DNA of 28,423 bases, taken from contig JBAXAI010000043.1 of assembly GCA_037142615.1 (NCBI GenBank), positions 1-28,423 on the forward strand, given 5' to 3'. Source of the stretch: Spirochaetales bacterium. Its GTDB lineage: Bacteria > Spirochaetota > Spirochaetia > JABEVK01. Position 1 is the first letter of the stretch. Each line of letters begins with the position of its first letter. The notes under the pieces were generated by a model. The model ran no database searches. It was given only the letters and a program-made list of their open reading frames with translations, and was not told where the DNA came from. Shown here one piece after another: positions 10,600 through 27,490 of the stretch. A program made the position numbers and the translations under genes.

Positions 10600-10892
10600 A
10601 GTCAAAAGCGGGCAGTGTCAAACGCGGCCCCGATGTTGAAGGCCAAATCACGGGGTGGCAGAGGGAAAGGGCGACGCGAACGTTACGAAGTACGTGAGCA
10701 GCGTCATTTCTCTCTGACGGGCCCCGGCGCTCGGCTGCGCCGAGCGCCTACAGTTGTCCGCTGGCGCAGTCAACTGTCACCTATGCGCTCCGTTGACGAC
10801 ACGGAGTTGCACCTCGCCAAAACTCCAACGGGACCCTGGGAACAATCTGCGGCGTCCGGGGCAGGCAATTGTCCCACTGCCCGCTTTTGGCT
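10600..10892. mobile_element. MITE/REP-like element bounded by inverted repeats
   Basis: CAAAAGCGGGCAGTG (10603-10617) is the exact reverse complement of CACTGCCCGCTTTTG (10875-10889), extending to 17/18 bp; interior is non-coding and stem-rich; no clear target-site duplication. Confidence 0.5.
10726..10819. repeat. 94-bp structured direct repeat, copy 2
   Basis: See copy 1; differences are GCGG/GCAG and GTTGAA/GTTGCA. Confidence 0.95.
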
Positions 10893-10897
10893 ACAAT
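10869..10897 (+). promoter_or_regulatory. Putative sigma70 promoter of alaS
   Basis: TTGTCC-17 bp-TACAAT, 10 nt before ATG 10908; no SD sequence. Confidence 0.55.
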
Positions 10898-10907
10898 AAG
10901 CGCCACC

Positions 10908-12704: not shown

Positions 12705-13444
12705 TTCCCGACCTCGCCGCTTGGCAGTGGGCGCTCACCGGCACCTCGGGCTTCTTCGTCGGCATGGCCAAAACCGGCGTCGCTGGCTTGGGCCTCATTT
12801 TTGTGCCCATCATGGCCTTTGTGTACGGGGCGCGCGCCTCGACGGGTGTGCTGCTGCCCATGCTCAGCATGGGCGATGTGTTCGGCGTCAGCTACTACCG
12901 GCGCCACGCCGACGTCAAGCATCTGTTCCGGCTCGTCCCCTGGACCTTGATCGGGCTCGGGCTGGGCATTTGGCTCGGCGCCTCGCTGCCTGATGCGCTG
13001 TTCAAGAAGCTCATGGGCGCTCTGGTGCTCGTGCTCGTGGTGCTGATGTTTTGGCAGGAGAACCGCAAGGACAAGGAATCGGTGCCGACGGGGTGGTGGT
13101 TCCACGCGCTCGCGGGCACGGCGGCCGGGTTCGCGACCATGGTCGGCAACGCGGCCGGCCCGGTGATGAGCCTGTACCTGATTTCGATGCGCCTGCCCAA
13201 GAACGCCTTCATCGGCACTTCGGCGTGGTTCTTTTTGGCCATCAACGCGGTGAAGATCCCGCTGCAGATCATCTTCTGGAAGAACATCGACCTGTCGACG
13301 CTCACCATCGACCTGATGGCGCTCCCGTTCATCGCGGCAGGCGCCTTTGTCGGCCTCAAGGTGGTCGGCAAGATCCCCGAGAAGTGGTACAAGCCGTTCA
13401 TCCTGGTCACCACCGCGCTGACTGCGGTCTTCCTCCTCCTGTAG
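12701..13444 (+). CDS. Sulfite exporter TauE/SafE family membrane protein
   Basis: GMAKTGVAG, STGVLLPML..GD, GFATMVGNAAGP, FIGT.AWFF..IN..KIP; GTGA overlap with alaS. Confidence 0.88.
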   Translation: MIPDLAAWQWALTGTSGFFVGMAKTGVAGLGLIFVPIMAFVYGARASTGVLLPMLSMGDVFGVSYYRRHADVKHLFRLVPWTLIGLGLGIWLGASLPDALFKKLMGALVLVLVVLMFWQENRKDKESVPTGWWFHALAGTAAGFATMVGNAAGPVMSLYLISMRLPKNAFIGTSAWFFLAINAVKIPLQIIFWKNIDLSTLTIDLMALPFIAAGAFVGLKVVGKIPEKWYKPFILVTTALTAVFLLL

Positions 13445-13511: not shown

Positions 13512-14870
13512 TCAGTCGATTTCCGAGACCGATTCGTCGGGTTCAGCGGTCCACTTCAGCTTGTCGAAGATGAAGAACACCAGGCTGATGAAGATACCGA
13601 CCAGCGTCGCGAGCACCATGCCGGAAAGAGCGGTTCCGCCGACGTTGATCGACAGGCCCGAGATACCGACGACGAACACGATGGCCGACAGCAGCAGGTT
13701 GCGGCTCTTGGAGTAGTCAACCTTGGCTTCGACCAGCATGCGCAAGCCCGAGGCCGCGATCACGCCGTACAGCATCAGGCTGATGCCGCCGATGACCGGG
13801 GTGGGAATCGAGCTGATCAGGGCGCTGAGGTGACCAAAGAACGCGATGATGATCGAAATGACGGCGGCGCCGCCGATGACCCACACCGAATAGACCTTGG
13901 TGATCGCCATGACGCCCATGTTCTCGCCGTAGGTGGTCGTGGGGCAGGAGCCCGTGAAGCCCGACAGCATGGTCGACAGGCCGTCGCCGAGCATCGAGTT
14001 GTGCAGGCCAGGATCCTTGATCAGGTTGCGCTCAACGATGTTTCCGGTGACGAACAGGTGGCCGATGTGCTCGCTCATAACAACCAGCGACGCCGGCAGG
14101 ATGATGAGAATGGCACCCAGGTCAAACTGGGGGAAGATCATCTTGGGGAAGGCGAACAGCTGAGCGGTGCCGAGGGCGGCAAAACTCATGACGTGGGCGT
14201 CGGGGTACACGGCGTTCAGAATGAGCGCGAGCACGTAGCCCGCTACCAAACCGACCAGAACAGGAACGGCGGCCCACACCTTGCGGAAGACCATCGAACC
14301 GACGACGACGACACCCAGGGTGAACATCGAGATGACGGTCATCATGGGGTCAATGACGCCCGAGGCGAACTTGTCGCCAAAGGCCATCGAGGCAGCCACG
14401 TTGGCCAAGCCCAGACCGATGAGCGAGACGATGGGGCCCATGGCGGCGGCGGGCAGCACGATGGAGATCCACTTGCGGCCGGCGAACCGGATGATGAGCG
14501 ACACGATGACGAAGGCCAAGCCCGCGACCACGAAGCCGCCGGTGACTTGCGCGAACCCGACTTCAGCGCCGACGCCGCCGGTGGCGATTGACGTGGCCAG
14601 AATGGCACCGGTGGGCGCCAAGAAGGCGAACGACGAGCCGAGGAAGGCGGGGGCCTTTCCCTTGGTGACGAGGATGTAGATCAAGGTGCCGATACCGTTC
14701 ATCAGAAGCACGAGCGACGGGTCGACAACCTGCACTTTCGCAAAACTATTGAACAGGATGGGGACCAACACCGATGCCCCGAACATCGCGAACAGATGCT
14801 GGAAACTGAGCGGGATCGCCTTCAGGATGGGAACCTTTTGTTCAACCTGGATGATCTCTCGAATAGCCAT
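13512..14870 (-). CDS. uraA: Uracil permease (NCS2/NAT family)
   Basis: SFQHLFAMFGASVLVP, FLGSSFAF, EHIGH, PTTTYGENMGVMAITKV NAT signature of the UraA type; AGGAGG SD. Confidence 0.93.
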   Translation of the reverse strand: MAIREIIQVEQKVPILKAIPLSFQHLFAMFGASVLVPILFNSFAKVQVVDPSLVLLMNGIGTLIYILVTKGKAPAFLGSSFAFLAPTGAILATSIATGGVGAEVGFAQVTGGFVVAGLAFVIVSLIIRFAGRKWISIVLPAAAMGPIVSLIGLGLANVAASMAFGDKFASGVIDPMMTVISMFTLGVVVVGSMVFRKVWAAVPVLVGLVAGYVLALILNAVYPDAHVMSFAALGTAQLFAFPKMIFPQFDLGAILIILPASLVVMSEHIGHLFVTGNIVERNLIKDPGLHNSMLGDGLSTMLSGFTGSCPTTTYGENMGVMAITKVYSVWVIGGAAVISIIIAFFGHLSALISSIPTPVIGGISLMLYGVIAASGLRMLVEAKVDYSKSRNLLLSAIVFVVGISGLSINVGGTALSGMVLATLVGIFISLVFFIFDKLKWTAEPDESVSEID

Positions 14871-15042: not shown

Positions 15043-17499
15043 CTAGGGTGTGATGGCGTGACTGGGGTCATGCCTCCGGGTAGCGGGATCCGACCGGCAC
15101 GAGCCAGCCGGGGTCTTGGTGATCCAGTTGTTGATCGGTTCGTGATCGCGCATCGAACGCCACACGTCTTCGGCCCTAATGGGCATGTGGGTCAGTTCGG
15201 CGTCGACCGCCTGCTGAATGGCGTTACCGAGGGCCGGCGCCACCGAAATCATGGGGTGCTCGCCCACGCCGCGGGCGCCGTACGGGCCGTCCAGTTGCGG
15301 GGTTTCGACGACGATGCTCTCGATCACGTCGGGGATGTCGCGCGAGGTGGGGATCTTGTTGTCGGTGAAGCTCGGGTTGAGCAGGTGACCCGCCACGTCG
15401 AAGATGTAGCCTTCGCAGACGGCTGTTCCCAGGCCCTGGATCATGCCGCCGATACACTGGCCGCGCACGATGTCGGGGTTGATCACCTGGCCCACGTCGA
15501 ACACCGACGACACTTGCCTCACATGGAACTCGCCGGTGTGCGGGTCGACCTCGGCGATGACGCCGTGGGCGCCGTAGGTCCAGTCGAGCGCGGGGTTGCC
15601 CTGGCCGGTCTCTTTGTCGAGGTTGCTCAGGCCCTGCGCCACGTAGCGGCCGACGCCGATGAGAGGCCCGCCGATGGCGTTGCCGTCGGGGAAGGCATAG
15701 CCGATCGACATCGCGGCAAACGTGACGCCCGTCTGGGGACGGTGGCGCACAAACACTTTGGTGTCGTCGTGGTCGAGGTCGGCCGGTTGGGCCCGGAGAA
15801 TCTGCCCCGCAACCTCATAGGCGTTCTTCAGCAGGTCGTCTGCGGCTAGGATGCAGGCGTTGCCCGACAGCAGCAGGCCCTTCGAGGCCACGGTCTGCCA
15901 GTCGTAGGGGTCTCGGTCGGTGTCTTTTTCGACGGTGACCTTCACCTGGTCGAGGCGGAACTTCAGGCGTTCGGCGACAATCTGGCCTAGCGCGGTGGCC
16001 GAGCCCTGACCCATTTCGGTGAGCGCGAGGTTGACGTTCACACTGCCGTCGGAGTTCATTTTGATGATGGTGGCGGTGGCCGTGAACGGCGGCATGGCTG
16101 GGGCCTTGTGGAGCGCCGCGATGCCCTTGCCGATCTTGAGGCCGGTGGCCTTTTCGCGGGCGAGCTCGTCGGGGGTGAGTTGGCCGTAGTTGATGGCTTG
16201 GGCCGCCGCGTCCAGACACTTCACGACGTTGCCGGTGTGTTCGGTGATCACCTCGCCGGTGAGCGTCACCGAGCCGGGGCGCAGAGCGTTCTTCAGGCGG
16301 AACTTGAGAGGGTCCATGCCGATGGCGTGGGCCACCAGTTCCATGTGCCGCTCGAGCCCCCAGAAGAACTCGACGTGGCCAAAGCCCCGGTAGGCGGTGC
16401 CGTAGGGTTTGTTGGTGTAAATGGTGTAGGCGTCGAGGTGTGCGTTGGGAATCTCGTACGGGCCGGCTGCAGAATAGCCCGACGCACGGGTGACGTTGAC
16501 GGCGTAGTCGGCGTAGGCCCCGGCGTCCCAGTACATCCACATTTGCTGGGCAAGGATCTTGCCATCGCTGCTGACCCCGGTCTTGATGCGGTAGGTGAGC
16601 GCCGAGCGGCAGGGGAGAAGGCTGAACTCTTCTTCGCGGGTGGCCTGGAACTTGACGGGAGCGCCGCCAGCCTTGCGGCTGAGGCAGGCCACCAGCGGTT
16701 CGATGTGGATGCCTGCCTTGCCGCCAAAACCGCCGCCGACGTGGGGAATCACCACGCGCACCTTGTTGAGCGGCAGCTTGAACGCGTAGCAGAACAGGTT
16801 GCGTACCGTGAAGGGCGACTGAGCGCTGGTCCAGATGGTCACGTCGTCGCCGAGCTTCCACTGCACGATGGCGACGTGGGTCTCCATGGGCACGTGTTGC
16901 ACCGAAGGGTTGGTGTATTCGCGGTCGATGATCCACTCGGCCTCTTCAAAACCCTTTTCGACGTCGCCCTTACGGAGCTTGGTGAGGTTGGCGATGTTGG
17001 TGCCGGGCATGGGCGTGAACGCGGCCTTGACGTAGTCGTACTGGCCCAGGTCGGGGTGCACCAGCGGGGCGCCTTCCTTCAGCGCGTCCATGTGGTTGAG
17101 GATGGGCGGAAGCACCTCGTAGGTGACCTCGATGAGGTCGACGGCCTTTTTCGCGATGGCCAAGGTGTCGGCGGCTACGGCGGCCACGGCCTCGCCAAAG
17201 TGGCGTACCTCACCCTTGGCCAGGATGTCCTTGTCGACGACGTACAAGCCCAGACGGTAGTCGAGTTCGGTGCCGACCAGCACGGCGCGGACGCCGGGCA
17301 GGGCCTCGGCCTTGCTGGTATCGATCTTGAGGATCTTGGCCCGGGCGTGCGGGCTCTTCTTCACCTGGGCGTGGAGCATGCCAGGCAGAATCATGTCGCT
17401 GGCGTAGATCGCCTGGCCGGTCATTTTTTCGAGGCCTTCAACGCGCGGGGCGTCGCGACCGACGTGCTTCAGCGTGGAGGGGTCTTGGTGGTCAAGCAT
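15043..17499 (-). CDS. Xanthine dehydrogenase-family molybdopterin-binding (large) subunit
   Basis: Start MLDHQDP..VGRDAPRVEGLEKMTG (ATG 17499); QHVPMETH, GGGFGGK, AYRGFG, EMGQG, GQCIGG..QG.G, GARGVGEHP (catalytic Glu). Confidence 0.95.
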   Translation of the reverse strand: MLDHQDPSTLKHVGRDAPRVEGLEKMTGQAIYASDMILPGMLHAQVKKSPHARAKILKIDTSKAEALPGVRAVLVGTELDYRLGLYVVDKDILAKGEVRHFGEAVAAVAADTLAIAKKAVDLIEVTYEVLPPILNHMDALKEGAPLVHPDLGQYDYVKAAFTPMPGTNIANLTKLRKGDVEKGFEEAEWIIDREYTNPSVQHVPMETHVAIVQWKLGDDVTIWTSAQSPFTVRNLFCYAFKLPLNKVRVVIPHVGGGFGGKAGIHIEPLVACLSRKAGGAPVKFQATREEEFSLLPCRSALTYRIKTGVSSDGKILAQQMWMYWDAGAYADYAVNVTRASGYSAAGPYEIPNAHLDAYTIYTNKPYGTAYRGFGHVEFFWGLERHMELVAHAIGMDPLKFRLKNALRPGSVTLTGEVITEHTGNVVKCLDAAAQAINYGQLTPDELAREKATGLKIGKGIAALHKAPAMPPFTATATIIKMNSDGSVNVNLALTEMGQGSATALGQIVAERLKFRLDQVKVTVEKDTDRDPYDWQTVASKGLLLSGNACILAADDLLKNAYEVAGQILRAQPADLDHDDTKVFVRHRPQTGVTFAAMSIGYAFPDGNAIGGPLIGVGRYVAQGLSNLDKETGQGNPALDWTYGAHGVIAEVDPHTGEFHVRQVSSVFDVGQVINPDIVRGQCIGGMIQGLGTAVCEGYIFDVAGHLLNPSFTDNKIPTSRDIPDVIESIVVETPQLDGPYGARGVGEHPMISVAPALGNAIQQAVDAELTHMPIRAEDVWRSMRDHEPINNWITKTPAGSCRSDPATRRHDPSHAITP

Positions 17500-17998
17500 G
17501 TTTGAGGACTCCCTTGGCCGAAGGCTGTCCGTCGGCCCCCGTTTGGCCCGAGACCTCGAGGACGGCCTCGATGATCTGCTGGTACCCGGTGCAGCGGCAG
17601 AAGTTGCCCTCAATGCCGTCTTTGATGTCTTCCACCGTGGGCTTGGGGTTGGTTCGCAGCAACTCGCGGGTCGACAGGATCATGCCCGAGGTGCAGAAGC
17701 CGCACTGCACGGCGTGGTGCTTGTGGAAGGCTTCCTGGATTCGGGAAAGTTGGCCTTGCTGAGCCTCGCCCTCGATGGTCTCGACCACCTTTCCGTCGGC
17801 TTCGACCGCGAGCACCATGCAGGCGTTGACGGTGCGCCCGTCGAAAAACACGGTGCAGGCCCCGCACTCACCGGCGCCGCAACCTTCCTTGGTGCCGATG
17901 AGGCCGAGGTCTTCGCGGAGAAAATGCAAAAGCGTCTGGCTTTCGGCCACGCTGCGGGCGTAGGCCTTGCCGTTGACGGTGAGTTGGATGGCGATCAT
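17492..17998 (-). CDS. Xanthine dehydrogenase-family 2x[2Fe-2S] small subunit
   Basis: Start MIAIQLTVNG; GTKEGCGAGECGACTV, QCGFCTSG, GNFCRCTGY. Confidence 0.96.
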   Translation of the reverse strand: MIAIQLTVNGKAYARSVAESQTLLHFLREDLGLIGTKEGCGAGECGACTVFFDGRTVNACMVLAVEADGKVVETIEGEAQQGQLSRIQEAFHKHHAVQCGFCTSGMILSTRELLRTNPKPTVEDIKDGIEGNFCRCTGYQQIIEAVLEVSGQTGADGQPSAKGVLKHA

Positions 17999-18807
17999 TT
18001 GGTTTCCTCCCAGAGGCGTCGAAGGTAGGCTTCGACCATGAACAGGCGGTATTCCTTGGTGCAGCGGATGTCGCTGATGGGGCTGACAGCGGCCAGCGTG
18101 GCCTTCACCACGTCGTCGAGCGGCGTGTTGTCGGTGAAGCCTTCGACCAACACGGGCACCGGCGCGGCCGAGCTGACGCTGACGCTGAGCTTGCCGTTCT
18201 TGCGGGCCACGGCAACGCCGACAATGCCCAGGTCGTGGCCCGTGATGCGCTTGAGCTTGCGGTATTCGCCGCGGGTGCCTGCCGAGGCTGCCGGTACCAC
18301 GATGCGTTCGACGATTTCGTCGGGGGCGAGAGCCGTCTTTTTGACGCCGGTGAAGAACTGCTGGAAGAGCAGGTCGCGAGTGCCGCGTACCGAGCTCAGG
18401 TGAGCGACGGCACCCAAACACAGGAGTGCCGGGGCCATGTCGGAACACGGCGAAGCGTTGACCACATTGCCGATGACCGTGGCACGGTTGCGGATCTGAT
18501 AACTGGCCAAATCGTGAGCGCAGACGGCCAGGAGGGGGTACTCCCGGCGCACCCGTTCGTCGCGAAGCAAGTCATTGATGGTCGTCGTCATGCCGAGAAC
18601 CAGCCCTTCGGCGGTCCACTCCAGGCCGCTGGGCTCGGCGAGGCGCTTGAGGTCAATGACAACCTCGGGCTTCACCGAGCCGGCCCGGATACCGGTCAGC
18701 AGGTCCGTGCCTCCGGCCAACACCTTGGCTTTGCCCTGATGCTCGGAGACCAGACTCAACAGTTGTTTGCGGCTCTCGGGAGCCGCGTAGCGGAAATCGT
18801 GCAGCAT
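17995..18807 (-). CDS. Xanthine dehydrogenase-family FAD-binding (medium) subunit
   Basis: Start MLHDFRYAAP; LAGGTDL, ASYQIRNRATVIGN, ASPCSD, PISDIR..KEYR. Confidence 0.95.
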   Translation of the reverse strand: MLHDFRYAAPESRKQLLSLVSEHQGKAKVLAGGTDLLTGIRAGSVKPEVVIDLKRLAEPSGLEWTAEGLVLGMTTTINDLLRDERVRREYPLLAVCAHDLASYQIRNRATVIGNVVNASPCSDMAPALLCLGAVAHLSSVRGTRDLLFQQFFTGVKKTALAPDEIVERIVVPAASAGTRGEYRKLKRITGHDLGIVGVAVARKNGKLSVSVSSAAPVPVLVEGFTDNTPLDDVVKATLAAVSPISDIRCTKEYRLFMVEAYLRRLWEETK

Positions 18808-18817
18808 AGCGTTTCCT

Positions 18818-19783
18818 TTAGGCGGGGATTCCACCCCGGATGATGCGGGTTCCGGTTTCGCCCTGGAGGGCTCGTTTGAGGTTTTCAGCGTTGGTGATGA
18901 CGGCCTGGTGGCCGCCCGCGGCCAAGTAAGCCAGAACGGCCCGGATCTTGGGCTCCATGCTTCCCTTGCCAAACTGGCCTTGGGCCAGATAGGCCTCGGC
19001 CTCGGCCACCGTGAGCGAGGTCAGCTCGCGCTGCGTGGGCTTGTTGAAGTCCAGACAGACCTTTTCGACCTCGGTGGCAATGACAAACAGGTCGGCGTCG
19101 ATGGCTCCGGCGAGCAGGGCCGAGGCATAATCCTTGTCGATGACGGCTTCGACGCCCGAAAGCGTTCCGTCGGTTTCTTCCACCACGGGAATGCCTCCAC
19201 CCCCGGCAGCGATGACGGTTTCGCCCTTGTCGATGAGCACGCGGATGATGGTTTCCTGGACGATACGCAGTGGGGCAGGCGAGGGGACCACCCGGCGCCA
19301 GCCTCGGCCGGAGTCTTCCATCACCGTCCAGCCGTCTTCGACGCGGTGCTTTTCGGCGGCGGCGGCGTCCATGAACGAGCCGACAGGCTTGGTGGGGTGG
19401 GCAAAACCCGGATCCTTGCGGTCCACGACGGTTTGCGAAATCAGAGCCACCGCCCGGTTGGGCATTCCACGCTTGCGAAACTCGTTGTACAAAGCCACCT
19501 CGAACATGTAGCCGATGGACCCCTGGGTGTTGCTGCCGCAGTAGTCGAGCGGGGCGGGGGGCAGTTCGGCCGAGCTGAGTTCCGACTTGCGCAGCAGAAA
19601 GCCGACTTGCGGACCGTTGCCATGGGTGAGCACCACCCGCCAGCCGTCGGCGATGAGATCGACGATGTGGGGCACCGTGAGGCGCACCGACTCGTACTGG
19701 TCGTACAGCGAGGTGTGCTGGGGGTCGCGGATGAGGGCGTTGCCCCCGACGGCGACGACGGCGGTGCGGATTGCGGTGCTCAT
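18818..19783 (-). CDS. arcC: Carbamate kinase
   Basis: VAVGGNAL, THGNGPQVG, TQGSIGY, PTKPVG, EDSGRGWRRVVPSP, GGGGIPV, VEAVIDKD, GSMEPKI; ATG 19783 after an SD. Confidence 0.96.
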   Translation of the reverse strand: MSTAIRTAVVAVGGNALIRDPQHTSLYDQYESVRLTVPHIVDLIADGWRVVLTHGNGPQVGFLLRKSELSSAELPPAPLDYCGSNTQGSIGYMFEVALYNEFRKRGMPNRAVALISQTVVDRKDPGFAHPTKPVGSFMDAAAAEKHRVEDGWTVMEDSGRGWRRVVPSPAPLRIVQETIIRVLIDKGETVIAAGGGGIPVVEETDGTLSGVEAVIDKDYASALLAGAIDADLFVIATEVEKVCLDFNKPTQRELTSLTVAEAEAYLAQGQFGKGSMEPKIRAVLAYLAAGGHQAVITNAENLKRALQGETGTRIIRGGIPA

Positions 19784-20604
19784 GCTGTTGCTCCTTCGAT
19801 GTTCCAGGCCCCGAGAAAACCCTGGGCCGCGTCGGTTCCCGAACTGTGTCCTAGCGCTGCCAGGGCCTCGACCGTGCTTGCCAGATCGTCGCGATGACCC
19901 AGCGCGGCCTGGCCAAAAGCGACCAGCGCAGCGCCAAAGCGGCCCCGGAAAGCCTCGGTGACAAAGGCCGCTGAGATCGCACCCGTCCGGGTCTCCCAGT
20001 CGATGTTCTCGGCGCGGACCGACAGGTCGCCCAGCCTTCCCTGCGCCTCCAAGCCGGCCAAAAATCCGCAAAGCAGATCGTCACCCGCCGGTGTGAGGCC
20101 GGGGCCGAGCCCGACAAGCTGCTCGACGGCCTGCCATTGCTGAACCGTCGAGCCGCTGGCCACCGCGTCTTGCAGGCGTCTCAAACCCGCGTTCAGCACC
20201 GACAGGTACAGGTTGCGGTCTGACCGAGCGGCCACCACGGCGGCGATAGCCTTTGCCGCCAACCTCAGCGTGGGGCGCGGGTCACGCTCTTTCGAGGCCG
20301 CACCCGCCGACCGGCTGTGGACCCGCTCGGTTTCGGGCTCGGCAAATCTGAGTCCGAGCGAACCGATGTTGAGCGTCACCACGTGACCGGTTTCCAGACC
20401 CGACTCGTCGAAGTTCAACCCCGGAGCCAGCACGGCTCGCGGGTGGGCCAGCCCCGGGTCGGTCACTACGGACACCAGAACCCCTGTTTCGGCCCGCAGG
20501 TTCACGGCGCGCGAAAACACGCTGTGCACCGTGAAGTTGCCTCCGGAGCGGGGGAACGACGAGCCCGCGCGGCAACCGCTCAGGCTAGCGACCCAGGTGT
20601 GCAC
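19780..20604 (-). CDS. DUF2877 protein (YahE/YlbF(AllH)-like carbamoyltransferase subunit)
   Basis: VHSVFSRAVN, LVGLGPGLTPAGDDLLCG, TGAIS, GHSSGTD motifs; start (GTG 20604) is uncertain. Confidence 0.88.
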   Translation of the reverse strand: MHTWVASLSGCRAGSSFPRSGGNFTVHSVFSRAVNLRAETGVLVSVVTDPGLAHPRAVLAPGLNFDESGLETGHVVTLNIGSLGLRFAEPETERVHSRSAGAASKERDPRPTLRLAAKAIAAVVAARSDRNLYLSVLNAGLRRLQDAVASGSTVQQWQAVEQLVGLGPGLTPAGDDLLCGFLAGLEAQGRLGDLSVRAENIDWETRTGAISAAFVTEAFRGRFGAALVAFGQAALGHRDDLASTVEALAALGHSSGTDAAQGFLGAWNIEGATA

Positions 20605-21250
20605 GCACCAAGGCGTCCTTGATCGCCGCTTCCACGTTGGTTTTGCCCCATTCGATGTTGCGCCGCAACGCCACCGAAACCGTCGCCAGATCCTTCTGCC
20701 GCAACGCCGCGATGATTTCGAGGTGGTCGACGCAGGTCTGCCGCAGCCGCTCGGTGTTGGTAATGTCAGACCGGCGCACAAAATGAATGTGACTGTCGAT
20801 GGCTCCCAGCGCTCGCACCAGCACGCGGTTGCCTGTGGCCTCGGCCAGCTCGCGGTGAAACCCCTCGTCTTCTTCGGCGGCTTTGGGCGAAAGAGCGGGC
20901 AAACCATCGCGCAGCTGCGTCCAACGGGCCTCCATGCGGTCGAGCACCGCGCCATCGACGCCGGCCCGGCACAGACGGGCCACCACATCCAGTTCCAGCA
21001 CCAGGCGCACATCGTACGAGTCTTTGATTTCCTGCAAATCGAGGTCGCGAACGGTGTAGCCCTGGCGCGCGTTTTTTCGCACCAAGCCGCGCTCCACGAG
21101 CATGTTGAGCGCCTCGCGGACCGGGCTCCGGCTGACCTGGAACTCGGCGCAAAGGCCTTCCTCGGTCAGTCGATGGCTCGGCGGGTACTCCCAACCCAGA
21201 ATCCGGAGGCTGAGCTGCTCGTAGATGTCCCCGCTCAGATTCACGATCAT
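20585..21250 (-). CDS. GntR (FadR/FCD-type) transcriptional regulator
   Basis: wHTH LTEEGLCAEFQVSRSPVREAL..L...GLV; FCD domain R..LE, D..FH, GN..L, DH..I. Confidence 0.93.
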   Translation of the reverse strand: MIVNLSGDIYEQLSLRILGWEYPPSHRLTEEGLCAEFQVSRSPVREALNMLVERGLVRKNARQGYTVRDLDLQEIKDSYDVRLVLELDVVARLCRAGVDGAVLDRMEARWTQLRDGLPALSPKAAEEDEGFHRELAEATGNRVLVRALGAIDSHIHFVRRSDITNTERLRQTCVDHLEIIAALRQKDLATVSVALRRNIEWGKTNVEAAIKDALVRAHLGR

Positions 21251-21627
21251 TGGAATACGAAGATCTTCACCGGCTTGCCGGGCCTTTCGTCGGATTCCTC
21301 GACGCTCGCGGTCAGTTTGAGCCCGGTTTTGGGCTCGTCGACCTCGACGCGGCCCGAGGCCCGCAGTCCGTTCTCAAACTGCACGATGCCGAACTGCAAG
21401 AACTTCTTGTTGTAGCCCTCGGGCAGATTCCACACCCTCGTCCAGGTGAGCAGGGTGCAGGGACCGCCCATTTCAAAGGTGGTCCAGTTGCGCTTGGTCA
21501 CCGGGTCGCGCCGGGCGCCGCACTTGCGACAGATCATCGGCGCCGGGTAGTAGCTCGTGCCGCACTTGTCGCACGTGTACCCCAGAATCTCGGGGGCTTT
21601 CACGTCGTACATGCTGAAGTCAATCAT
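21247..21627 (-). CDS. DUF35-type Zn-ribbon plus OB-fold protein (thiolase partner)
   Basis: CDKCGTSYYPAPMICRKCG zinc ribbon followed by an OB-fold (LLTWTRV, GIVQFENG); adjacent to the thiolase-fold gene. Confidence 0.88.
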   Translation of the reverse strand: MIDFSMYDVKAPEILGYTCDKCGTSYYPAPMICRKCGARRDPVTKRNWTTFEMGGPCTLLTWTRVWNLPEGYNKKFLQFGIVQFENGLRASGRVEVDEPKTGLKLTASVEESDERPGKPVKIFVFQ

Positions 21628-21636
21628 GGCGTCCTC

Positions 21637-22836
21637 CTAGTCCTTGGCACAGATGACGGCGACGACGTTGTTACCGAAGCCACCGAAGTTGACCGACATC
21701 CCGTACTTGGGATCCTTGACCTGACGGCCTTCTTCGGCCTCGCCCCGCAGTTGACGCACCAGTTCGACAACCTGGCTGACGCCGGTGCCGCCCACGGGGT
21801 GTCCTTTCGACTTCAGCCCCCCCGAGGTGTTGATCGGCATGCGACCGGTGATCGCGGTTTCACCCTTGCGGGCGGCCAGGAACGACTTGCCACGCTCAAA
21901 AAAGCCGACTTCTTCGCTGATGGCGAGTTCCAGGATGCTGAAAGCGTCGTGAAGTTCGGCAAAGTTGATGTCGCTGGGCTTCAGGCCTGCCATCTTGTAG
22001 GCTTTTTCGCCGGCGATGCGCACAGCGTTGAGTTGAAGCGGGTCGGCCCGGTTGTGCACGCAATGCGTGTCGGTCGCGCTGGCCACTCCGGCGATGCGAA
22101 CCGCCTTCTTGGCAAACAGCTTGGCCTTGGGTGAGTCCATGTTGACCAGCAGCAACGCGGCCGCTCCGTCGGAAACCGGGCACGTCGAGTACATGCGCAG
22201 CGGTTCGGCGATGTAGTTGTTCACCACGTCGGCCTCGGGACCATCGGCGATGGCCTCGACCGTGCAGGTGGCCTGGATGTGGGCGTACTTGTTCTTGGCC
22301 CCGTTGTCGTGGTTTTTCACGGCCAGAAGCGCCAAGTCACGCTCGGTCAGGCCGTACTTCTCCATGTACATCCGCGTGAACATGCCGCCAAACCCGGGTA
22401 GTGTCAGGCCCATGTTGTATTCGGTCTCGGTGTCGAGCATGGTCGATACGATATCGGTGGCGTTCCAGCCCGAGACCTTGCGCATGATCTCACCGCCGAC
22501 CACCAGCACGACGTCGGCCATTCCCGACAGGATGGCCATCGTGCCCAATTTGACGGCGCTGGCCCCCGAGGCGGGACCGTTCTCGACCAGTTCGGCCGGA
22601 ACTGGCTCCATGTCGAGGCGGCTGACCATGGACGACGCCACGGCACTTTGGTGACAGAACAGGCCCGACGCCATGTTGGCGACGAACACTTGGTCAATCT
22701 CTTTGCGGTGTTCCAGGAAGCCCGCATCCAACAGCGCGTCGGTGGCCGCGTAGGCCAGAACGTCTGCCAGATCGTACTCGCTGGAGTTGCCGAATCGGGT
22801 GTGCCCTATGCCGACGATTCCTACTCGGGGTGCCAT
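21637..22836 (-). CDS. SCP-x/archaeal-type thiolase-fold protein, catalytic Cys replaced by Pro
   Basis: VGIGHTRFG, ENGPASG (canonical ENACASG), KNHDNG..N..AH, PVSDGAAA, AELHDAF, NTSGGLKSKGHPVGGTG, NFGGFG. Confidence 0.9.
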   Translation of the reverse strand: MAPRVGIVGIGHTRFGNSSEYDLADVLAYAATDALLDAGFLEHRKEIDQVFVANMASGLFCHQSAVASSMVSRLDMEPVPAELVENGPASGASAVKLGTMAILSGMADVVLVVGGEIMRKVSGWNATDIVSTMLDTETEYNMGLTLPGFGGMFTRMYMEKYGLTERDLALLAVKNHDNGAKNKYAHIQATCTVEAIADGPEADVVNNYIAEPLRMYSTCPVSDGAAALLLVNMDSPKAKLFAKKAVRIAGVASATDTHCVHNRADPLQLNAVRIAGEKAYKMAGLKPSDINFAELHDAFSILELAISEEVGFFERGKSFLAARKGETAITGRMPINTSGGLKSKGHPVGGTGVSQVVELVRQLRGEAEEGRQVKDPKYGMSVNFGGFGNNVVAVICAKD

Positions 22837-22839
22837 ACC

Positions 22840-23526
22840 TTACCTCTTGAAGCCGGGGAGCTGGGGATAGTCCGTCGGCATGATGAGCTTTTCGCACGAC
22901 TTGAGGTCGGCGTCGGACACGGGGCGGCTGCCGGTGCACTTGATGTCGCGCACGGCATTCCAGAGCTTGCGGGTGAGCACGAAGGTGGGCACCCCGCCGA
23001 GTTCGTGGCGCACTTCGGGGAACTGGGCCGAACGGTCTTCGAGCTGGTATTCGATCATCCAGCGCTTGAAGCCGTTGGGGCTTTCGGCGACGATCCAGAC
23101 TTCGTCTTCGCCCAGGATGTCGATGTGGTGTTCCATTTTGGCGGCGAACAGCTGGGCACCGACGCGCAGGCCACGCTTGATGGTCATGGTGTGCAGGCTC
23201 ATGCCCAGGCCGGCGCTGACGTGGCGGCTGGTGACGATGCCGGCGATGACGCCGTTGATGGCGCCGACGAGAACGAACTCATTGGCCACGCGGTAGCGGT
23301 ACCAGCCGAGGATTTCGGAGTACATGCGGGCCGCAACAATGTCGTAATAATCTGAAGGGACGCCGATGAGCGGGAACACGGTGCCCAACAGGGCTCCGAC
23401 TTCTTCGCGGCGGGCTTCCCGTACCACCATTTTTTCGCCGCTGGCGAGGGTGATCACCTTGGCGGGGTAGGGCTTGAGCTCGATGGCCGGTGGCCTCAGT
23501 TTCTTTTCCATGTCGTCGATTGCCAT
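22840..23526 (-). CDS. Uncharacterised protein with probable GNAT (N-acyltransferase) fold
   Basis: VVREARREE opening strand, VLVGAINGVIAG hairpin, KRGLRVGAQL resembling acyl-CoA-binding motif A; strong SD (AGGAG) and host-like codon usage. Confidence 0.65.
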   Translation of the reverse strand: MAIDDMEKKLRPPAIELKPYPAKVITLASGEKMVVREARREEVGALLGTVFPLIGVPSDYYDIVAARMYSEILGWYRYRVANEFVLVGAINGVIAGIVTSRHVSAGLGMSLHTMTIKRGLRVGAQLFAAKMEHHIDILGEDEVWIVAESPNGFKRWMIEYQLEDRSAQFPEVRHELGGVPTFVLTRKLWNAVRDIKCTGSRPVSDADLKSCEKLIMPTDYPQLPGFKR

Positions 23527-23563
23527 ATTCTTCTCCTTTTGAAGTTGCCTCTGTGGGCGTTAA

Positions 23564-24436
23564 TTACTTGCGGATCGCTTCTTGGTGCAGCCAGGCGTTT
23601 TCGGACCCGGCGATGTCGCCGTACTTGGTCAGCTTGGCCTTGGCCTTCTTCTTCATCAGCTCTTCGTAGCGGTCGTCGTCCACATGGGCCACGATGCGGG
23701 CGATCGAAGCTTCGCCGTCGACGAACTTCCACGGGTAGCAACCGATGGTGGCCCGCTGGTTGAGCAGCAGGTCGATGTCGCCGCCGACGCACTCAGCGTG
23801 AATCAGGCCGACGTTGAACATCTCGATGTGCATGAGCTGGTACTTGTCTTCGGTGAACACCTCTTCGAGTTTTTTGCCGTACTTCTTTTGGAAGTGCGCG
23901 TCGCACTCCTTGGCCTGCTTGGGCATCCACTCGCGGATCTTGGTGTTCATGGGGTGGTCGGCCGAGCCGCAGTCGACACCGATCCAGCGTAGCTTTTTGC
24001 GTTTGGCCCACTCGGCAAACTCGCGGTCGGGACCCGGGTGCTTGATCATGTAGCGGATCTCGTCGGCGGTCGGCTGGTCCCAGCCGTAGTGGTGGTGGCC
24101 GGTGTGGATGAGCAGGATGTCGCCTTCTTTCACTTCGACGCGGTCTTCGACCATTTTCGAGGTGTAGACGTCGTAGTCGTCGCACACGTCGGACAGGTCG
24201 ACGATGGCGCCTTCATGGACGAGAAAGTCCATGTCCAGACTGGCGATATCTTTCCCCGGCGTATAGAAATGAATCTCGCCGTCAAGGTGCGTGCCCAGGT
24301 GGTTGCTGTGCGTGACCACTTGGCCGTTGGCCCCGTTGGGCGCCAGGCGCTTGAAATACTGCACCTGCAGAGGAATGTAGGTGGGCCAGGGCGGCGTGCC
24401 GACTCCCAGCGGAATGGACAGATCGATGACTTTCAC
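23564..24436 (-). CDS. Cyclase-family (kynurenine formamidase/isatin hydrolase-like) metal amidohydrolase
   Basis: VIDLS.P, HLGTHLD (HxGTHxD), GDILLIHTG, IGVD..S.D, H......G..H.E, P.K..DGEAS..R; GTG start after AGGAG. Confidence 0.9.
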   Translation of the reverse strand: MKVIDLSIPLGVGTPPWPTYIPLQVQYFKRLAPNGANGQVVTHSNHLGTHLDGEIHFYTPGKDIASLDMDFLVHEGAIVDLSDVCDDYDVYTSKMVEDRVEVKEGDILLIHTGHHHYGWDQPTADEIRYMIKHPGPDREFAEWAKRKKLRWIGVDCGSADHPMNTKIREWMPKQAKECDAHFQKKYGKKLEEVFTEDKYQLMHIEMFNVGLIHAECVGGDIDLLLNQRATIGCYPWKFVDGEASIARIVAHVDDDRYEELMKKKAKAKLTKYGDIAGSENAWLHQEAIRK

Positions 24437-25875
24437 AAAGTGCTCCTTTGATGGGGGGTGGTGTAGCGTTCGGCGAAGGCCTTGAGCGCGTCTTGAAAGC
24501 AGTTTTCCGGCGGTTTGACCAAGCCGGCGCCGACCATGCCGATGCCGGGGGTTTTGTGCGCGATGCCGGTGTTGATCACGGGCAAAATGCCCTTTTCGAC
24601 CACCAGCCGCACGTCGATGGCGGTCGGGGTGCCACGGAAGTCGAGCGCGGGAATCTTGTAATGCTCGCTTTCGGCGAGGGTGATCTCGTACATGCGCTCG
24701 GTGAAGGCGATGGCGTCGGCAGGGGTGCCGCCGACGAACTTGACGATGGCTGGGGCGGCCGCCATGGCAAACCCGCCGATGCCGGCTGTTTCGGTGATCA
24801 CGGAGTCGCCGATGTCGGGGGCCGCGTCGGCGGCGGTGTAGCCGGGAAGGTACAGTCCTTCGACGATGCCTGCGGGACCGGTGAACCAGCGGTCGCCCAA
24901 GCCCGACAGCTGGATGCCGAAGTCGGTGCCGTTGCGCGCCATCGCGATGATGACACTGCTGCCCTCGATGCCCCGGGCCGCGTCAACGACGCATTTGCTG
25001 GCGGGCATCGACAGGTTGAGGAAGAAGTGGTCGTTGCCGTTGAGGAAGTTCAGCACCTTGGCGATGACTTCGCGCGGCCGGTCGAGCAGCACCAAGTGCG
25101 GCGCGAGCTCGCGGATCACCAGCGACGTGCCCGCGCGGTTGCGGTTGTGGCCTTCGTCGCCCATTTGGAGCACCTGCGCCAACAGGCCTCGCAGGTCGAG
25201 GGGCCCGTGGGCGGCCAGAGCCTCGCTCATCACCGGGGCCAAGTCGGTCTCGATCCACTTCAGGCGCTCTTGCACCTCTTCGCCGAATGCGCCGTAGCGC
25301 AGCACCTTGCCCAAGCCTTCGTTGAAGGTGGCGAAGGCCCGGTTGCCGTAGGTCTCATTTTCGAAGATCCACACGGGCATGCGGCTGGTCATGATGCCCG
25401 CCATGGGGCCCACGGCGTTGTGGTGGTGGCAGGGCTCGAAGGTGATTTTGCCCGAAGCGGCCAGCGCCTCGGCTTCCTCCCGGGTCTTGGCCAAGCCTTC
25501 GTAGATCAGGCCTCCGATGACCGCGCCGCGCATCGGGCCGGCCATGCGGTCCCACGTGATGGGTGGGCCGGAATGAAGCACCAGGTGCGAGTGCATACCG
25601 GGAACGACGTCGCGGGCCGTGCCGACACCGATGAGCATCGGTTTGCCCTTGAGGATGCGGCTCACGGCCTCGGCATTTGCCTCCTCGACGTTCACGGTGG
25701 AATGCGCCGCGATTCGGTCGAGCGCGGCAAGCAGGGCCAGGTCGCCACCGGCCGGCGGGCGCCAGTCGACCTGAACCACCGGCACCTCGTGCGCGGCGAG
25801 GGTCTCGCCAAACGAGGCCAGGCCGAGGTTCACCACCTTGAGCGGGCTCTGAAACAGGTTGAGGACGGCGTTCAT
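24433..25875 (-). CDS. yahG: DUF1116 protein (YahG/YlbE(AllG)-like carbamoyltransferase subunit)
   Basis: LHSGPPI, PCHHHNAVGPMAG, NEGLGKVLRYGA, MGDEGHNRN, NDHFFLN, MARNG..FGI, DIGDS.ITET.G.GG, P.INTGIAH; N-terminal VVNLGL..F...DWRPPAGG segment as in YahG. Confidence 0.9.
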   Translation of the reverse strand: MNAVLNLFQSPLKVVNLGLASFGETLAAHEVPVVQVDWRPPAGGDLALLAALDRIAAHSTVNVEEANAEAVSRILKGKPMLIGVGTARDVVPGMHSHLVLHSGPPITWDRMAGPMRGAVIGGLIYEGLAKTREEAEALAASGKITFEPCHHHNAVGPMAGIMTSRMPVWIFENETYGNRAFATFNEGLGKVLRYGAFGEEVQERLKWIETDLAPVMSEALAAHGPLDLRGLLAQVLQMGDEGHNRNRAGTSLVIRELAPHLVLLDRPREVIAKVLNFLNGNDHFFLNLSMPASKCVVDAARGIEGSSVIIAMARNGTDFGIQLSGLGDRWFTGPAGIVEGLYLPGYTAADAAPDIGDSVITETAGIGGFAMAAAPAIVKFVGGTPADAIAFTERMYEITLAESEHYKIPALDFRGTPTAIDVRLVVEKGILPVINTGIAHKTPGIGMVGAGLVKPPENCFQDALKAFAERYTTPHQRSTL

Positions 25876-27422
25876 CGGGTGGTCCCCTTTTCCAGGATTC
25901 TCTTGGCCAGCATCGAGGCCTGGTAGTTCGACGGCATCACGACGACCCCGGCGGCCTCGAGTTTGGCCCTTTGGCCGGCGAGTCCCTGGTAGTCGCCCTC
26001 GGTGCCGGTAATCGAAGCCACGATGGGAAGGTAGCCCCCCCGCTTTTCGGCAGCGGCCTTGGCGGCAATCAGCGACCCGACCAGCGCCCCGGCGGGGTCA
26101 CGGTGCGAGCCGTAGCCGAGAACCACGTCAACGAGCATCACGGCGATCTCGGGGTCGTCTACTTCGGCGTCGATGCGGTCGGTTCGGGTGCTGGGGTCGA
26201 TCATGGGATGAGGTCGGCCGACGGTAAACACGTCGTCACCCAGATCGACCACCGTGTGGCCGACAGATTTCTGCGGATCGGGTGGCACAAAGGCCGGGTC
26301 GGTCTGGTTATTGGACCACACCGCGCCGGTCAGACCGTGCAGGAGCAACCACGCTTCGTCGGCCAGGGTTCCGCCGGTAAAGTACCCGCGGATATACTTT
26401 TGCGTCTTGGAAAGGCGGGCGGCCTCGCGGCTCGCCAGGCGTTCCAGTTCCTGGGCAGACGAGGCCTCGGGCCCGAGTCCCGCCGCCATTCTCGCGGCTT
26501 CTTCCAGATTGCTGGCCCAGCGGATCAGCGGGTGTGCTTTGGCCTTGGGGTCGGGCTTGAGCCCGATGAAATGCACCACCGACGGTTTGCCGGCCTTTTC
26601 GAGCGCGGCAAGCACTTTGTCGGCCACAGCGCGGGCCGGCGGTTTGCTGACGACCACCAAGCTCGTGGTGGCGGGGTCTGCCGCCAGAGCTTCGAGCGCG
26701 GTCAGCATCGTAAGCCCGCCGACTTTCTCGTTCTTGAGGTCGCGGCCGCCGGTGCCGATGGCTTGGCTCACGCCGATGCCGTAGCGGTCGAGCAGGCAGC
26801 TGACTTCCTGCAGGCCCGTGCCAGACGCGGCGACGATGCCCACTTTGCCTCGGCGCACCACATTGGCGAAACACAGCGGCGAACCGTTGACGATGGCCGT
26901 GCCGCAGTCGGGGCCCATGACCAGGAGGCCCTTGGTGCGGGCGAAGGTTTTGAGCTCAATTTCTTCTTCCAACGGCACATTGTCGCTGAACAGCATCACG
27001 TGGAGCCCTTTTTCGAGCGCCTTCCGGGCTTCGCGGGCGGCGTAGGCCCCGGGCAGACTGATCACGACCAGGTTGGTGCCTTCCTGAAGGGCGAGGGCCC
27101 CGGCCAGGTCGCGCGGCTGGGCGGCTTGACCGGCTCCGGTGGCGCGCGGAGCCGCCTTGCGGACGAGCAGCGCCTCGGCGGACTTCACGGCGGTGTCCAT
27201 TCCGGCGTCGTCGGTCTCGAGGGCGATCACCAGGTCATTGGGCCCGGCAAGGGCCAGACGATCGGCGTCGAAACCCGAAGTGGCCAGCAGGTCGCGGTTC
27301 ATCGGGGTGCCCAGCGTGACGGTCGCCTGGGTAACCCCGGCCAGGTCCTGCAGCTCCTTGCTCATCAGCATCAGGAACACGGAATCGTAGTAGGAATCCT
27401 TTTTGACAATGACGTTCTTCAT
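25872..27422 (-). CDS. fdrA: FdrA/YahF-family acyl-CoA-synthetase-like protein (carbamoyltransferase subunit)
   Basis: YYDSVFLM, ISLPGAYAA.EA, MLFSDNV, MGPDCGT, ASGTGLQE, AIGTGGRDL, SKPP, GGTL..EA, DLGDD.FT.GRPHPMIDP, DVVLGYG. Confidence 0.95.
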   Translation of the reverse strand: MKNVIVKKDSYYDSVFLMLMSKELQDLAGVTQATVTLGTPMNRDLLATSGFDADRLALAGPNDLVIALETDDAGMDTAVKSAEALLVRKAAPRATGAGQAAQPRDLAGALALQEGTNLVVISLPGAYAAREARKALEKGLHVMLFSDNVPLEEEIELKTFARTKGLLVMGPDCGTAIVNGSPLCFANVVRRGKVGIVAASGTGLQEVSCLLDRYGIGVSQAIGTGGRDLKNEKVGGLTMLTALEALAADPATTSLVVVSKPPARAVADKVLAALEKAGKPSVVHFIGLKPDPKAKAHPLIRWASNLEEAARMAAGLGPEASSAQELERLASREAARLSKTQKYIRGYFTGGTLADEAWLLLHGLTGAVWSNNQTDPAFVPPDPQKSVGHTVVDLGDDVFTVGRPHPMIDPSTRTDRIDAEVDDPEIAVMLVDVVLGYGSHRDPAGALVGSLIAAKAAAEKRGGYLPIVASITGTEGDYQGLAGQRAKLEAAGVVVMPSNYQASMLAKRILEKGTTR

Positions 27423-27431
27423 GAATACGTC

Positions 27432-27459
27432 AGGATATACCCGATTGTATACAAGTCAA
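27432..27459 (-). promoter_or_regulatory. Operon promoter with GntR-type operator TTGTATACAA (27445-27454)
   Basis: TTGACT-16 bp-TATCCT on the minus strand, 9 nt before the fdrA ATG; a perfect 10-bp palindrome abuts the -35 box. Confidence 0.75.
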
Positions 27460-27490
27460 GAGAAATGTTGAGCCCTATGAATTGGGGGCC

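Follow-up and report, generated by a model that had tools for sequence, protein, structure and literature searches.

A GntR-linked gene cluster of a Spirochaetales bacterium joining a carbamoyltransferase, a molybdenum hydroxylase and a thiolase-fold enzyme trio, with a possible role in pyrimidine breakdown

Which compound is broken down by a gene cluster that places a carbamoyltransferase related to the oxalurate enzyme of Escherichia coli, a carbamate kinase and a three-subunit molybdenum (Mo) hydroxylase next to a cyclase-family hydrolase and to a trio of proteins recalling coenzyme A (CoA) chemistry? The question is raised by contig JBAXAI010000043.1 of a Spirochaetales bacterium (GCA_037142615.1), of which a stretch of 28,423 nucleotides (nt), hereafter the window, was analysed as a whole; its central feature is a set of twelve tightly packed minus-strand genes running from 27422 to 15043. 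An initial annotation had proposed that an N-heterocycle is hydroxylated, ring-opened to an N-carbamoyl amide and phosphorolysed for ATP, the remaining carbon being handled by CoA chemistry, and this interpretation holds in outline: the substrate can be narrowed to a pyrimidine on the basis of the permeases, and the remnant to a malonyl-type C3 amide, while the chemistry itself is a proposal. The reading preferred here, to which about an even chance of being right is given, is that of a GntR-controlled, horizontally spread operon for the O2-independent and energy-conserving breakdown of pyrimidines, most likely of uracil and perhaps of thymine too.

All twelve co-oriented genes and the five 4-nt start/stop overlaps first described (25872-5, 24433-6, 21247-50, 19780-3 and 17995-8) were found in their places; an additional overlap of 8 nt (17492-17499) joins the genes of the 2Fe-2S and Mo subunits, and the non-overlapping junctions among the twelve genes are gaps of 3-55 nt. 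Families were assigned by Pfam and NCBIfam profile scans of the open reading frames (ORFs) of the window, with equivalog cut-offs where given. The tight packing agrees with the twelve-gene operon originally proposed, except that one of the twelve genes encodes a GntR regulator and that the unit probably comprises 13 genes. In particular, a co-oriented gene for a uracil permease of the NCS2 family (13512-14870, minus strand; NF007995 equivalog, 548 bits against a cut-off of 477) lies 172 nt beyond the Mo subunit gene and is followed by an intrinsic-terminator-like hairpin with a 15-bp stem and a T run (13494-13461, minus strand), the only strong one of the region. The operon most likely extends through this permease gene and is closed by the terminator.

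In the proposed pathway the UraA-type permease would import uracil, and the three-subunit Mo hydroxylase would add a water-derived oxygen at C6 with the formation of barbiturate and two reducing equivalents; the cyclase-family metal hydrolase would successively open the cyclic amide to ureidomalonate (N-carbamoyl-malonamate), which is the job of barbiturase in the aerobic oxidative pathway. Ureidomalonate is, by chemical reasoning, the one-carbon-longer acyl-urea analogue of oxalurate, and the homologue of AllF-AllG-AllH would cleave this acyl-urea with phosphate to carbamoyl phosphate and malonamate, comparably to the action of E. coli AllFGH on oxalurate. Carbamate kinase would then convert carbamoyl phosphate and ADP into ATP, CO2 and NH3. 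The C3 amide would be disposed of by the trio, which is encoded between the cyclase and the regulator and consists of U228, a GNAT-fold protein of 228 aa without Pfam or NCBIfam match (22840-23526), a thiolase-fold protein (21637-22836; Thiolase_N PF00108, 89 bits; Thiolase_C_1 PF22691, 146 bits) and a DUF35-type zinc-ribbon/OB protein (21247-21627; PF12172 zf-ChsH2, 32.5 bits), all on the minus strand. Its most likely action would be a CoA-assisted decarboxylation of the malonyl unit to a C2 product, in which a malonyl-CoA-like intermediate is probably decarboxylated in the cysteine-free thiolase site, and the removal of the amide product would also pull the carbamoyl transfer forward. Alternatively, the trio might decarboxylate malonamate directly to acetamide, or act on malonate after a hydrolysis.

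The carbamoyltransferase is encoded on the minus strand by allF (25872-27422, 516 aa), allG (24433-25875, 480 aa) and allH (19780-20529, 249 aa). AllF scores 532 bits with the FdrA model NF004760 (cut-off 433), carries CoA_binding and Ligase_CoA domains and matches the structure of E. coli FdrA (PDB 3dmy, E 1.6e-89); AllG belongs to DUF1116 (PF06545, 328 bits) and AllH to DUF2877 (PF11392, 77 bits), the latter being read from a GTG start at 20529 behind GGAGG. The carbamate kinase gene (18818-19783, minus strand; TIGR00746 arcC, 371 bits, cut-off 358) overlaps the allH stop codon; all three subunit families of an AllFGH system and a carbamate kinase are united in one operon. The identities with the E. 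coli proteins are 42% for AllF, 47% for AllG, 36% for AllH (over 114 aa) and 37% for AllK. According to the accessible parts of two reports, E. coli AllFGH catalyses the reversible conversion of oxalurate and phosphate into carbamoyl phosphate and oxamate, AllK being the coupled carbamate kinase (Kim & Kim 2024, PMC11326118; 2022, PMC9843812); a metagenomic study, as far as its available text goes, describes allFGHK genes adjoining those for biuret and triuret (PMC12625717).

With such relatives, the locus could be the canonical oxalurate branch of anaerobic purine or allantoin use, in which the Mo enzyme would be a xanthine dehydrogenase (XDH) and the allantoin genes would lie elsewhere. The complete AllFGH and carbamate kinase set at 36-47% identity to E. 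coli is what this explanation expects, and among the NCBIfam models the Mo subunit scores best with XdhA, though below its cut-off; however, the adjacent permease is a uracil equivalog and not one for purines or allantoin, and the oxalurate branch offers no role for the cyclase and the trio, although no other genes of the cluster are as conserved. Moreover, the genes leading from allantoin to oxalurate are missing from the surroundings: the larger ORFs scanned include no allantoin or urate gene, as first noted for the window, and the possibility that the allantoin genes are located elsewhere finds no support, since a tblastn search of the same genome (96.7% complete) returned no homolog of E. 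coli AllC or AllE, AllB being outside the query set. The AllD query met only a generic Ldh_2 protein (32% identical), and the search for Ldh_2 gave two generic matches that are not diagnostic. Given the lack of AllC and AllE homologs in the tblastn search, an oxalurate or allantoin role is unlikely, and this explanation as a whole is regarded as very improbable.

The Mo hydroxylase has the three-subunit architecture of the XDH family by Pfam, with a flavin adenine dinucleotide (FAD)-binding subunit (17995-18807; PF00941 and PF03450), a 2Fe-2S subunit (17492-17998; PF01799 and PF00111) and a molybdopterin-binding large subunit (15043-17499; PF01315, PF02738 and PF20256), all encoded on the minus strand. 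The Mo subunit remains below the xanthine dehydrogenase equivalogs (500 bits with XdhA NF043082, whose cut-off is 780; 465 with NF007426, whose cut-off is 916), and its nearest solved structures are 4-hydroxybenzoyl-CoA reductase (1rm6), CO dehydrogenases and quinoline 2-oxidoreductase. The putative ring-opening enzyme is a cyclase-family metal hydrolase of 290 aa (23564-24436, minus strand; PF04199, 105 bits), which keeps the His/Asp metal motif HSNHLGTHLDGEIH, aligned with the motif of kynurenine formamidase and found in an equivalent form in 52 of 56 loci. It is closest to kynurenine formamidase by sequence and to kynurenine formamidase and Mn-dependent isatin hydrolase by fold; the fold matches only confirm the family, since the model is of low confidence (predicted local distance difference test, pLDDT, 67.6 overall and under 50 in segment 11-54, which contains the metal site). 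With 45 bits against a cut-off of 223 it falls short of the arylformamidase equivalog TIGR03035, and it belongs to a separate clade that is highly conserved (79-92% identity across phyla). The barbiturase/AtzD family PF09663 had no match in the same genome, in a search whose control was likewise blank in all 14 genomes, so that this negative carries no information.

The conservation of this arrangement was followed through U228, of which a scan of one genome per species (~186,000 species genomes) found relatives in at least 252 stretches; the best 80 loci were analysed with 13 window proteins by tblastn (E <= 1e-10, at least 50% coverage), the genes in the fetched loci being chosen by codon-position GC content. 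The thiolase gene comes after that of U228 in all the 74 loci with room for it, and DUF35 is present in 65 of the 66 loci with at least 3 kb downstream. Upstream, where at least 4.3 kb were available (62 loci), cyclase, AllG and AllF occur together in 47 loci, the cyclase alone in one and none of the three in 14; the block of cyclase, GNAT, thiolase and DUF35 genes is therefore kept next to allF-allG, as a co-occurrence search suggested by the initial annotation was meant to establish. The whole set, Mo hydroxylase included and essentially in the order of the window, is found in 30 of the 41 fully flanked loci, the trio only in six, and allF-allG-cyclase-trio with no Mo hydroxylase nearby in five. 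Going by their record titles, loci with the full set belong to Spirochaetota, Caldisericota, Ca. Eisenbacteria, Acidobacteriota, Alphaproteobacteria and Anaeromyxobacter, and trio-only loci to Verrucomicrobiota, Kiritimatiellia, Lentisphaerae and one metagenome-assembled genome (MAG) of Desulfovibrionaceae. The five genomes with no Mo hydroxylase near the block encode a Mo subunit of 73-76% identity elsewhere in three cases, a stop-interrupted copy in the fourth and in the fifth no more than a fragment of 43% identity at the end of a contig.

AllH was not matched by tblastn in 11 of the 30 loci with the full set; at its position ten loci, eight of them among those 11, have a divergent AllH of 345 aa (PF11392, 60.6 bits in locus L052). 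Conservation within the cluster is highest for the cyclase and the trio (75-93% identity across phyla), and U228 is carried by only two of 12 genomes within the order of the source bacterium; such a patchy distribution, together with such identities across phyla, points to a horizontal spread of the cluster. Homologous protein clusters of U228 number 2850, and the best 120 of them are 78-93% identical, their sources naming Treponema, Sphaerochaeta, Gracilinema and Lentisphaerae; carriers occur in freshwater and lake metagenomes and as MAGs of many anaerobic lineages. The feature is real, conserved and mobile. When the flanking ORFs of all 80 loci were clustered, no recurrent cytosine deaminase or uridine phosphorylase appeared, and the only recurrent extras were the divergent AllH, a clade-specific synteny in Verrucomicrobiota and a 145-aa protein in 14 loci. 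The last, which has no Pfam match, is encoded on the opposite strand just past the NCS2 permease, mostly in Sphaerochaeta and Caldisericota (e.g. L027:19222-19659). As a separate observation, the genome of locus L047 contains the Mo-subunit ortholog only as overlapping pieces in different frames with internal TGA stops, 59-71% identical (G005:C34:95743-97891), a pattern suggesting that the copy is frameshifted or decaying, or that the assembly is in error.

The regulation of the cluster is indicated by promoter-like hexamers that overlap a perfect 10-bp palindrome, TTGTATACAA (27445-27454), located upstream of allF on the minus strand (27432-27471). Of 47 related loci, 26 have the exact palindrome no more than 260 nt upstream of allF, and 33 have it when one mismatch is tolerated; ten loci have neither palindrome nor GntR gene (L047-L050, L060-L062, L065, L076 and L078), and the GntR gene is present with no palindrome match in L055, L057 and L059. 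The same palindrome occurs at a second allF'-allG' locus of the source genome (L083), next to a GntR paralog of 67% identity. It is a good phylogenetic footprint and, by these sequence criteria, a candidate operator of the cluster's GntR/FCD-family transcription regulator (20585-21250, minus strand; PF00392 and PF07729), which would probably repress the operon at this site. The single upstream promoter/operator of the first description fits the allF end; the uracil permease gene has a promoter-like site of its own (14930-14902). As regards expression, metatranscriptome contigs of library X14, identical to the window, cover parts of the uraA, GntR, thiolase and U228 genes and span two gene junctions, DUF35/thiolase and, over only 34 nt, carbamate kinase/FAD; among the contigs listed for X14 none covers the Mo subunit, cyclase, allG or allF, and library X23 gives no cover, an absence that proves nothing. 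These contigs are a weak hint of expression, since a single transcript is not provable from contigs and DNA carry-over is possible, and the co-transcription initially proposed is weakly favoured by the overlapping genes, one conserved operator and the contigs across two junctions.

The six trio-only cases among the fully flanked loci show that the trio is a separable module, and CN-hydrolases instead of ureide genes stand beside it there, so that two independent modules might merely adjoin in the window: one for a ureide, made up of Mo hydroxylase, AllFGH, carbamate kinase and cyclase, and one for an amide or malonate, made up of the trio and belonging to a separate pathway. Where allFG is present, however, the trio is located in the middle of the cluster, between cyclase and allH, in an order kept across several phyla, and in the window it is joined to its neighbours by gaps of 3-37 nt behind a single operator; the coverage of the trio and of flanking genes by the RNA-library contigs tends, weakly, in the same direction. 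Two unconnected pathways are, for these reasons, considered quite unlikely.

The substrate of the pathway is suggested primarily by the transporters. Seven cluster-associated permeases were scored, and those of the window, L003 and L056 pass the uracil-permease equivalog cut-off; in L053 and L056 a UraA-like gene stands inside the cluster. The family assignment of the permeases points to uracil as the imported substrate. The remnant is suggested by neighbours of the trio in other genomes. An amidase gene (PF01425, 230 bits) is inserted between cyclase and U228 in two loci (L060:8459-9799 and L061:4569-5903), in a variant cluster with a divergent cyclase (51% identical); a malonate-decarboxylase-alpha-like (MdcA-like) gene (PF16957, 769 bits) stands in convergent orientation immediately beyond the trio in the first of these loci (L060:12164-13795), and a partial one, a 61% identical fragment, follows the trio in a Verrucomicrobiota genome (L028:11491-12021). 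A CN-hydrolase gene divergently adjoins the trio in 13 trio-only loci of related Verrucomicrobiota, Lentisphaerae or Kiritimatiellia genomes, and in the Desulfovibrionaceae locus (L080) the trio stands behind a nitrilase-like gene and a gene for a MctC/ActP-type monocarboxylate symporter. Links of the trio to amide, nitrile or carbamoyl hydrolases are hence repeated, one locus adds a monocarboxylate importer and two add malonate chemistry, as expected of proteins acting on malonamate or a closely related C3 compound.

The same logic of hydroxylation, ring opening and phosphorolysis of an N-carbamoyl amide for ATP could also serve another N-heterocycle or ureide, for instance a purine-derived ring (xanthine or another), a hydantoin, orotate or a pyrimidine carrying substituents. 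The Mo subunit, which matches no equivalog and whose solved relatives act on aromatics and heteroaromatics other than pyrimidines, leaves room for such a substrate, as do the permease of L013, which is more xanthine-permease-like, and the three further permeases below the uracil cut-off. These three nevertheless score well above the xanthine permease with the uracil model, and three others of the seven pass the uracil cut-off. In addition, a Rectinemataceae MAG (L054:12537-19562) encodes, directly behind allF-allG-cyclase-trio, an aldehyde dehydrogenase, an M20 amidohydrolase, dihydropyrimidine dehydrogenase subunits similar to PreT and PreA and a dihydropyrimidinase-type amidohydrolase, its orthologous Mo hydroxylase (76% identical) being encoded on a separate contig; and a malonyl C3 remnant, as left by a pyrimidine and not by a purine, agrees with the amidase and MdcA-like neighbours. 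A substrate other than uracil or thymine is accordingly a possible but not a probable alternative.

Several points weigh against the breakdown of uracil as outlined here. The Mo subunit is the equivalog of no named enzyme and its sequence says nothing on uracil. Among the permeases, that of L064 has the uracil permease as its best match below the cut-off, and for those of L005 and L027 the uracil model, also below the cut-off, is a close second to the generic NCS2 one; the xanthine-like permease of L013 speaks for another ring. The Rectinemataceae locus ties the block to pyrimidines, but through the reductive and not the oxidative route, and it is one locus in 80; its PreA, dihydropyrimidinase and M20 proteins have no counterpart in the source genome beyond a 30% identical match resembling dihydroorotate dehydrogenase (tblastn). 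Most loci, the window included, are without the amidase, and if malonamate is hydrolysed first the enzyme is missing here. The carbamate kinase gene is inside the locus in eight of the 30 full loci and absent from it in 22; an arcC-like gene is found elsewhere in all of the five genomes tested (two above the cut-off, two within 3 bits and one in two pieces). Six of the 41 fully flanked loci have the trio but no allFG, cyclase or Mo genes, so that it may have a more general role. Furthermore, many of the 80 loci derive from related genomes, so that the counts overstate the number of independent cases, and all the steps of the pathway are deduced from sequence.

The trio deserves separate consideration, since its members are labelled 'acetyl-CoA acetyltransferase' or 'hypothetical' in the databases and it is without a characterised counterpart. 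U228 is unmatched by the GNAT sequence models of Pfam and NCBIfam; its AlphaFold 2 model (pLDDT 82.7) gave 232 PDB matches at E <= 0.001 with Foldseek, headed by GNAT acyltransferases (E ~1e-6, template modelling score, TM, ~0.5), and ESM Atlas returned only 'N-acetyltransferase' clusters, so that, judging from the model, the protein adopts a GNAT fold. It has an invariant R118-G-L-R-x-G-A124 stretch at the position of the CoA-pyrophosphate loop of GNAT proteins. The thiolase-fold protein is nearest to archaeal-type thiolases (7yvy, E 1.7e-82; 6esq, E 5e-66), but the sequence 'ENGPASG' stands opposite 'EAACASG' of PDB 7yvy, Pro88 being aligned with the nucleophilic Cys; [VI]ENGPASG, and hence Pro for Cys, is found in 76 of 76 homologues. 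As a consequence of this replacement, the protein cannot act as a thiolase through an acyl-enzyme. The stretches HDAF, GHP and NTSGG are invariant in its homologues, and the polar residues retained are presumably those used by thiolase-fold enzymes to polarise a carbonyl.

The DUF35 protein has four Cys residues invariant in 14 sequences. A prediction, made with alignments, of the complex of thiolase-fold protein, DUF35 protein and U228 reached a score of 0.07 against a mark of 0.32, which speaks neither for nor against binding, and the assignment of the trio to CoA chemistry comes only from the modelled GNAT fold and from the thiolase fold. Three longer proteins considered as U228 fusions were set aside: two of them (P0122 and P0123) show a weak Thiolase_N match, and in P0123 the stretch between the two parts is rich in Arg and poorly aligned, which looks like a frameshifted gene call rather than a genuine fusion. 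A bolder proposal is that the trio is a new kind of enzyme converting malonamate directly into acetyl-CoA, CO2 and NH3, by an amide-to-CoA-thioester exchange on the GNAT subunit and a malonyl decarboxylation in the Cys-free thiolase site; this is doubtful and is put forward at a low probability.

The source genome contains a second carbamoyl-phosphate locus on contig C6 (116.9-124.4 kb; L083:1897-9388), which encodes AllF', AllG' and carbamate kinase' proteins 46%, 52% and 51% identical to their window counterparts and no AllH, together with a 538-aa membrane protein lacking a Pfam match, a protein with an allophanate-hydrolase C-terminal domain (PF21986), an isochorismatase-family hydrolase and the divergent GntR, 67% identical to that of the window. 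Its function may be the breakdown of a biuret- or allophanate-like ureide by phosphorolysis. In a trio-only locus of Verrucomicrobiota, the plus-strand gene after DUF35 (L009:12413-13018) encodes a deaminase domain of the BURPS668_1122 family (PF14424, 100.6 bits) and has an N-terminus that appears signal-like.

The remaining ORFs of the window encode an ABC-2 transporter, a DcuC-like carrier, a DUF2817 protein, a PAS histidine kinase, a rubrerythrin, small mobile-element-like proteins, a short protein similar to alanyl-tRNA synthetase (AlaRS), TauE and an ABC ATPase. On the plus strand at 2438-4973, the gene of the DcuC-type anaerobic C4-dicarboxylate carrier overlaps the start of the DUF2817 gene (succinylglutamate-desuccinylase/aspartoacylase-like), and the two may be a small uptake-and-deacylation pair. 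The segment 8264-10247 has a lower GC content (0.58-0.59) and carries, on the plus strand, small mobile- or defence-like genes for a caspase-domain protein (156 aa), a FitA-like ribbon-helix-helix antitoxin and a PD-(D/E)XK transposase-family protein. The AlaRS-like ORF (10869-12704, plus strand) has only 611 aa, shorter than a standard AlaRS, with a class II core and a SAD domain; its stop codon overlaps the start of the gene of a TauE/SafE exporter (12701-13444).

Pyrimidine catabolism is established to proceed by the reductive, the Rut and the oxidative routes, none of which is known to us to conserve energy. If the preferred reading, that of pyrimidine breakdown by the whole cluster, is correct, anaerobes would have a usable pyrimidine route with water as the oxygen donor and with ATP recovered from the ureido carbon, by the same logic as in the arginine deiminase and oxalurate pathways; the AllFGH class of enzymes would gain a second substrate family, and functions would be assigned to a widespread clade of the cyclase family and to the trio. 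Should the trio also release acetyl-CoA, the pathway would, with carbamate kinase, allow anaerobes to ferment uracil with two substrate-level phosphorylations per ring and would stand as a fourth route by which pyrimidines are catabolised, one that conserves energy. Given the origin of the carriers from lakes, freshwater and anaerobic MAGs, the pathway may matter for nucleobase turnover in anoxic habitats, and the cultured strains of Sphaerochaeta and Gracilinema, among them Sphaerochaeta sp. PS (locus L032), Sphaerochaeta halotolerans and Gracilinema caldarium as candidate carriers, make the hypothesis directly testable. A literature search outside subscription journals and supplements returned no paper on this gene combination.

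Compared with known systems, the cluster resembles E. coli AllFGH/AllK in the subunit families, in the catabolic carbamate kinase and in the proposed phosphorolysis of an acyl-urea followed by ATP formation; it differs in that allH is split from allFG by five genes, the allantoin context is lacking, the genes are embedded with those of the Mo hydroxylase, cyclase, uracil permease and trio, and the proposed substrate is ureidomalonate and not oxalurate. The aerobic oxidative pyrimidine pathway of actinobacteria proceeds from uracil to barbiturate and ureidomalonate by means of uracil/thymine dehydrogenase, barbiturase and ureidomalonase, and is similar in the proposed intermediates and in the use of a hydroxylating dehydrogenase. 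In contrast, ring opening is assigned here to a cyclase fold unrelated to barbiturase, the carriers are anaerobes, and the release of the ureido group would be phosphorolytic, with a gain of ATP, in place of a hydrolysis that yields urea. Kynurenine formamidase and isatin hydrolase share with the window cyclase the fold and the His/Asp metal motif, and isatin hydrolase also opens a cyclic amide; the window cyclase is ~80 residues longer and belongs to its own conserved clade.

Relatives of the trio are found among thiolase/hydroxymethylglutaryl-CoA synthase (HMGS)/DUF35-type assemblies, which, in the parts of the reports that are accessible, include the archaeal complex PDB 6esq, the PhlACB acylase (PMC6392133), a streptococcal set of HMGS with acetyl-CoA acetyltransferase (ACAT) and DUF35 (PMC12960953) and the steroid aldolases Ltp2 and Sal, which have a DUF35 partner (PMC12329534). 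The likeness consists of a thiolase of SCP2/archaeal type, a DUF35 partner and a third catalytic partner; in this sense, and as far as the accessible description of Ltp2 and Sal goes, the trio appears, like these aldolases, to reuse the thiolase scaffold for non-thiolase chemistry. However, the third partner is here a GNAT-fold protein and not a thiolase-fold HMGS or ketoacyl-ACP synthase III (KAS III), the Cys is replaced by Pro in every homologue compared, and the context is the catabolism of nitrogen rings and amides, whereas the known complexes operate in isoprenoid, polyketide and steroid metabolism. Against these systems, the cluster is a variant of ureide/pyrimidine catabolism that contains an uncharacterised enzyme trio.

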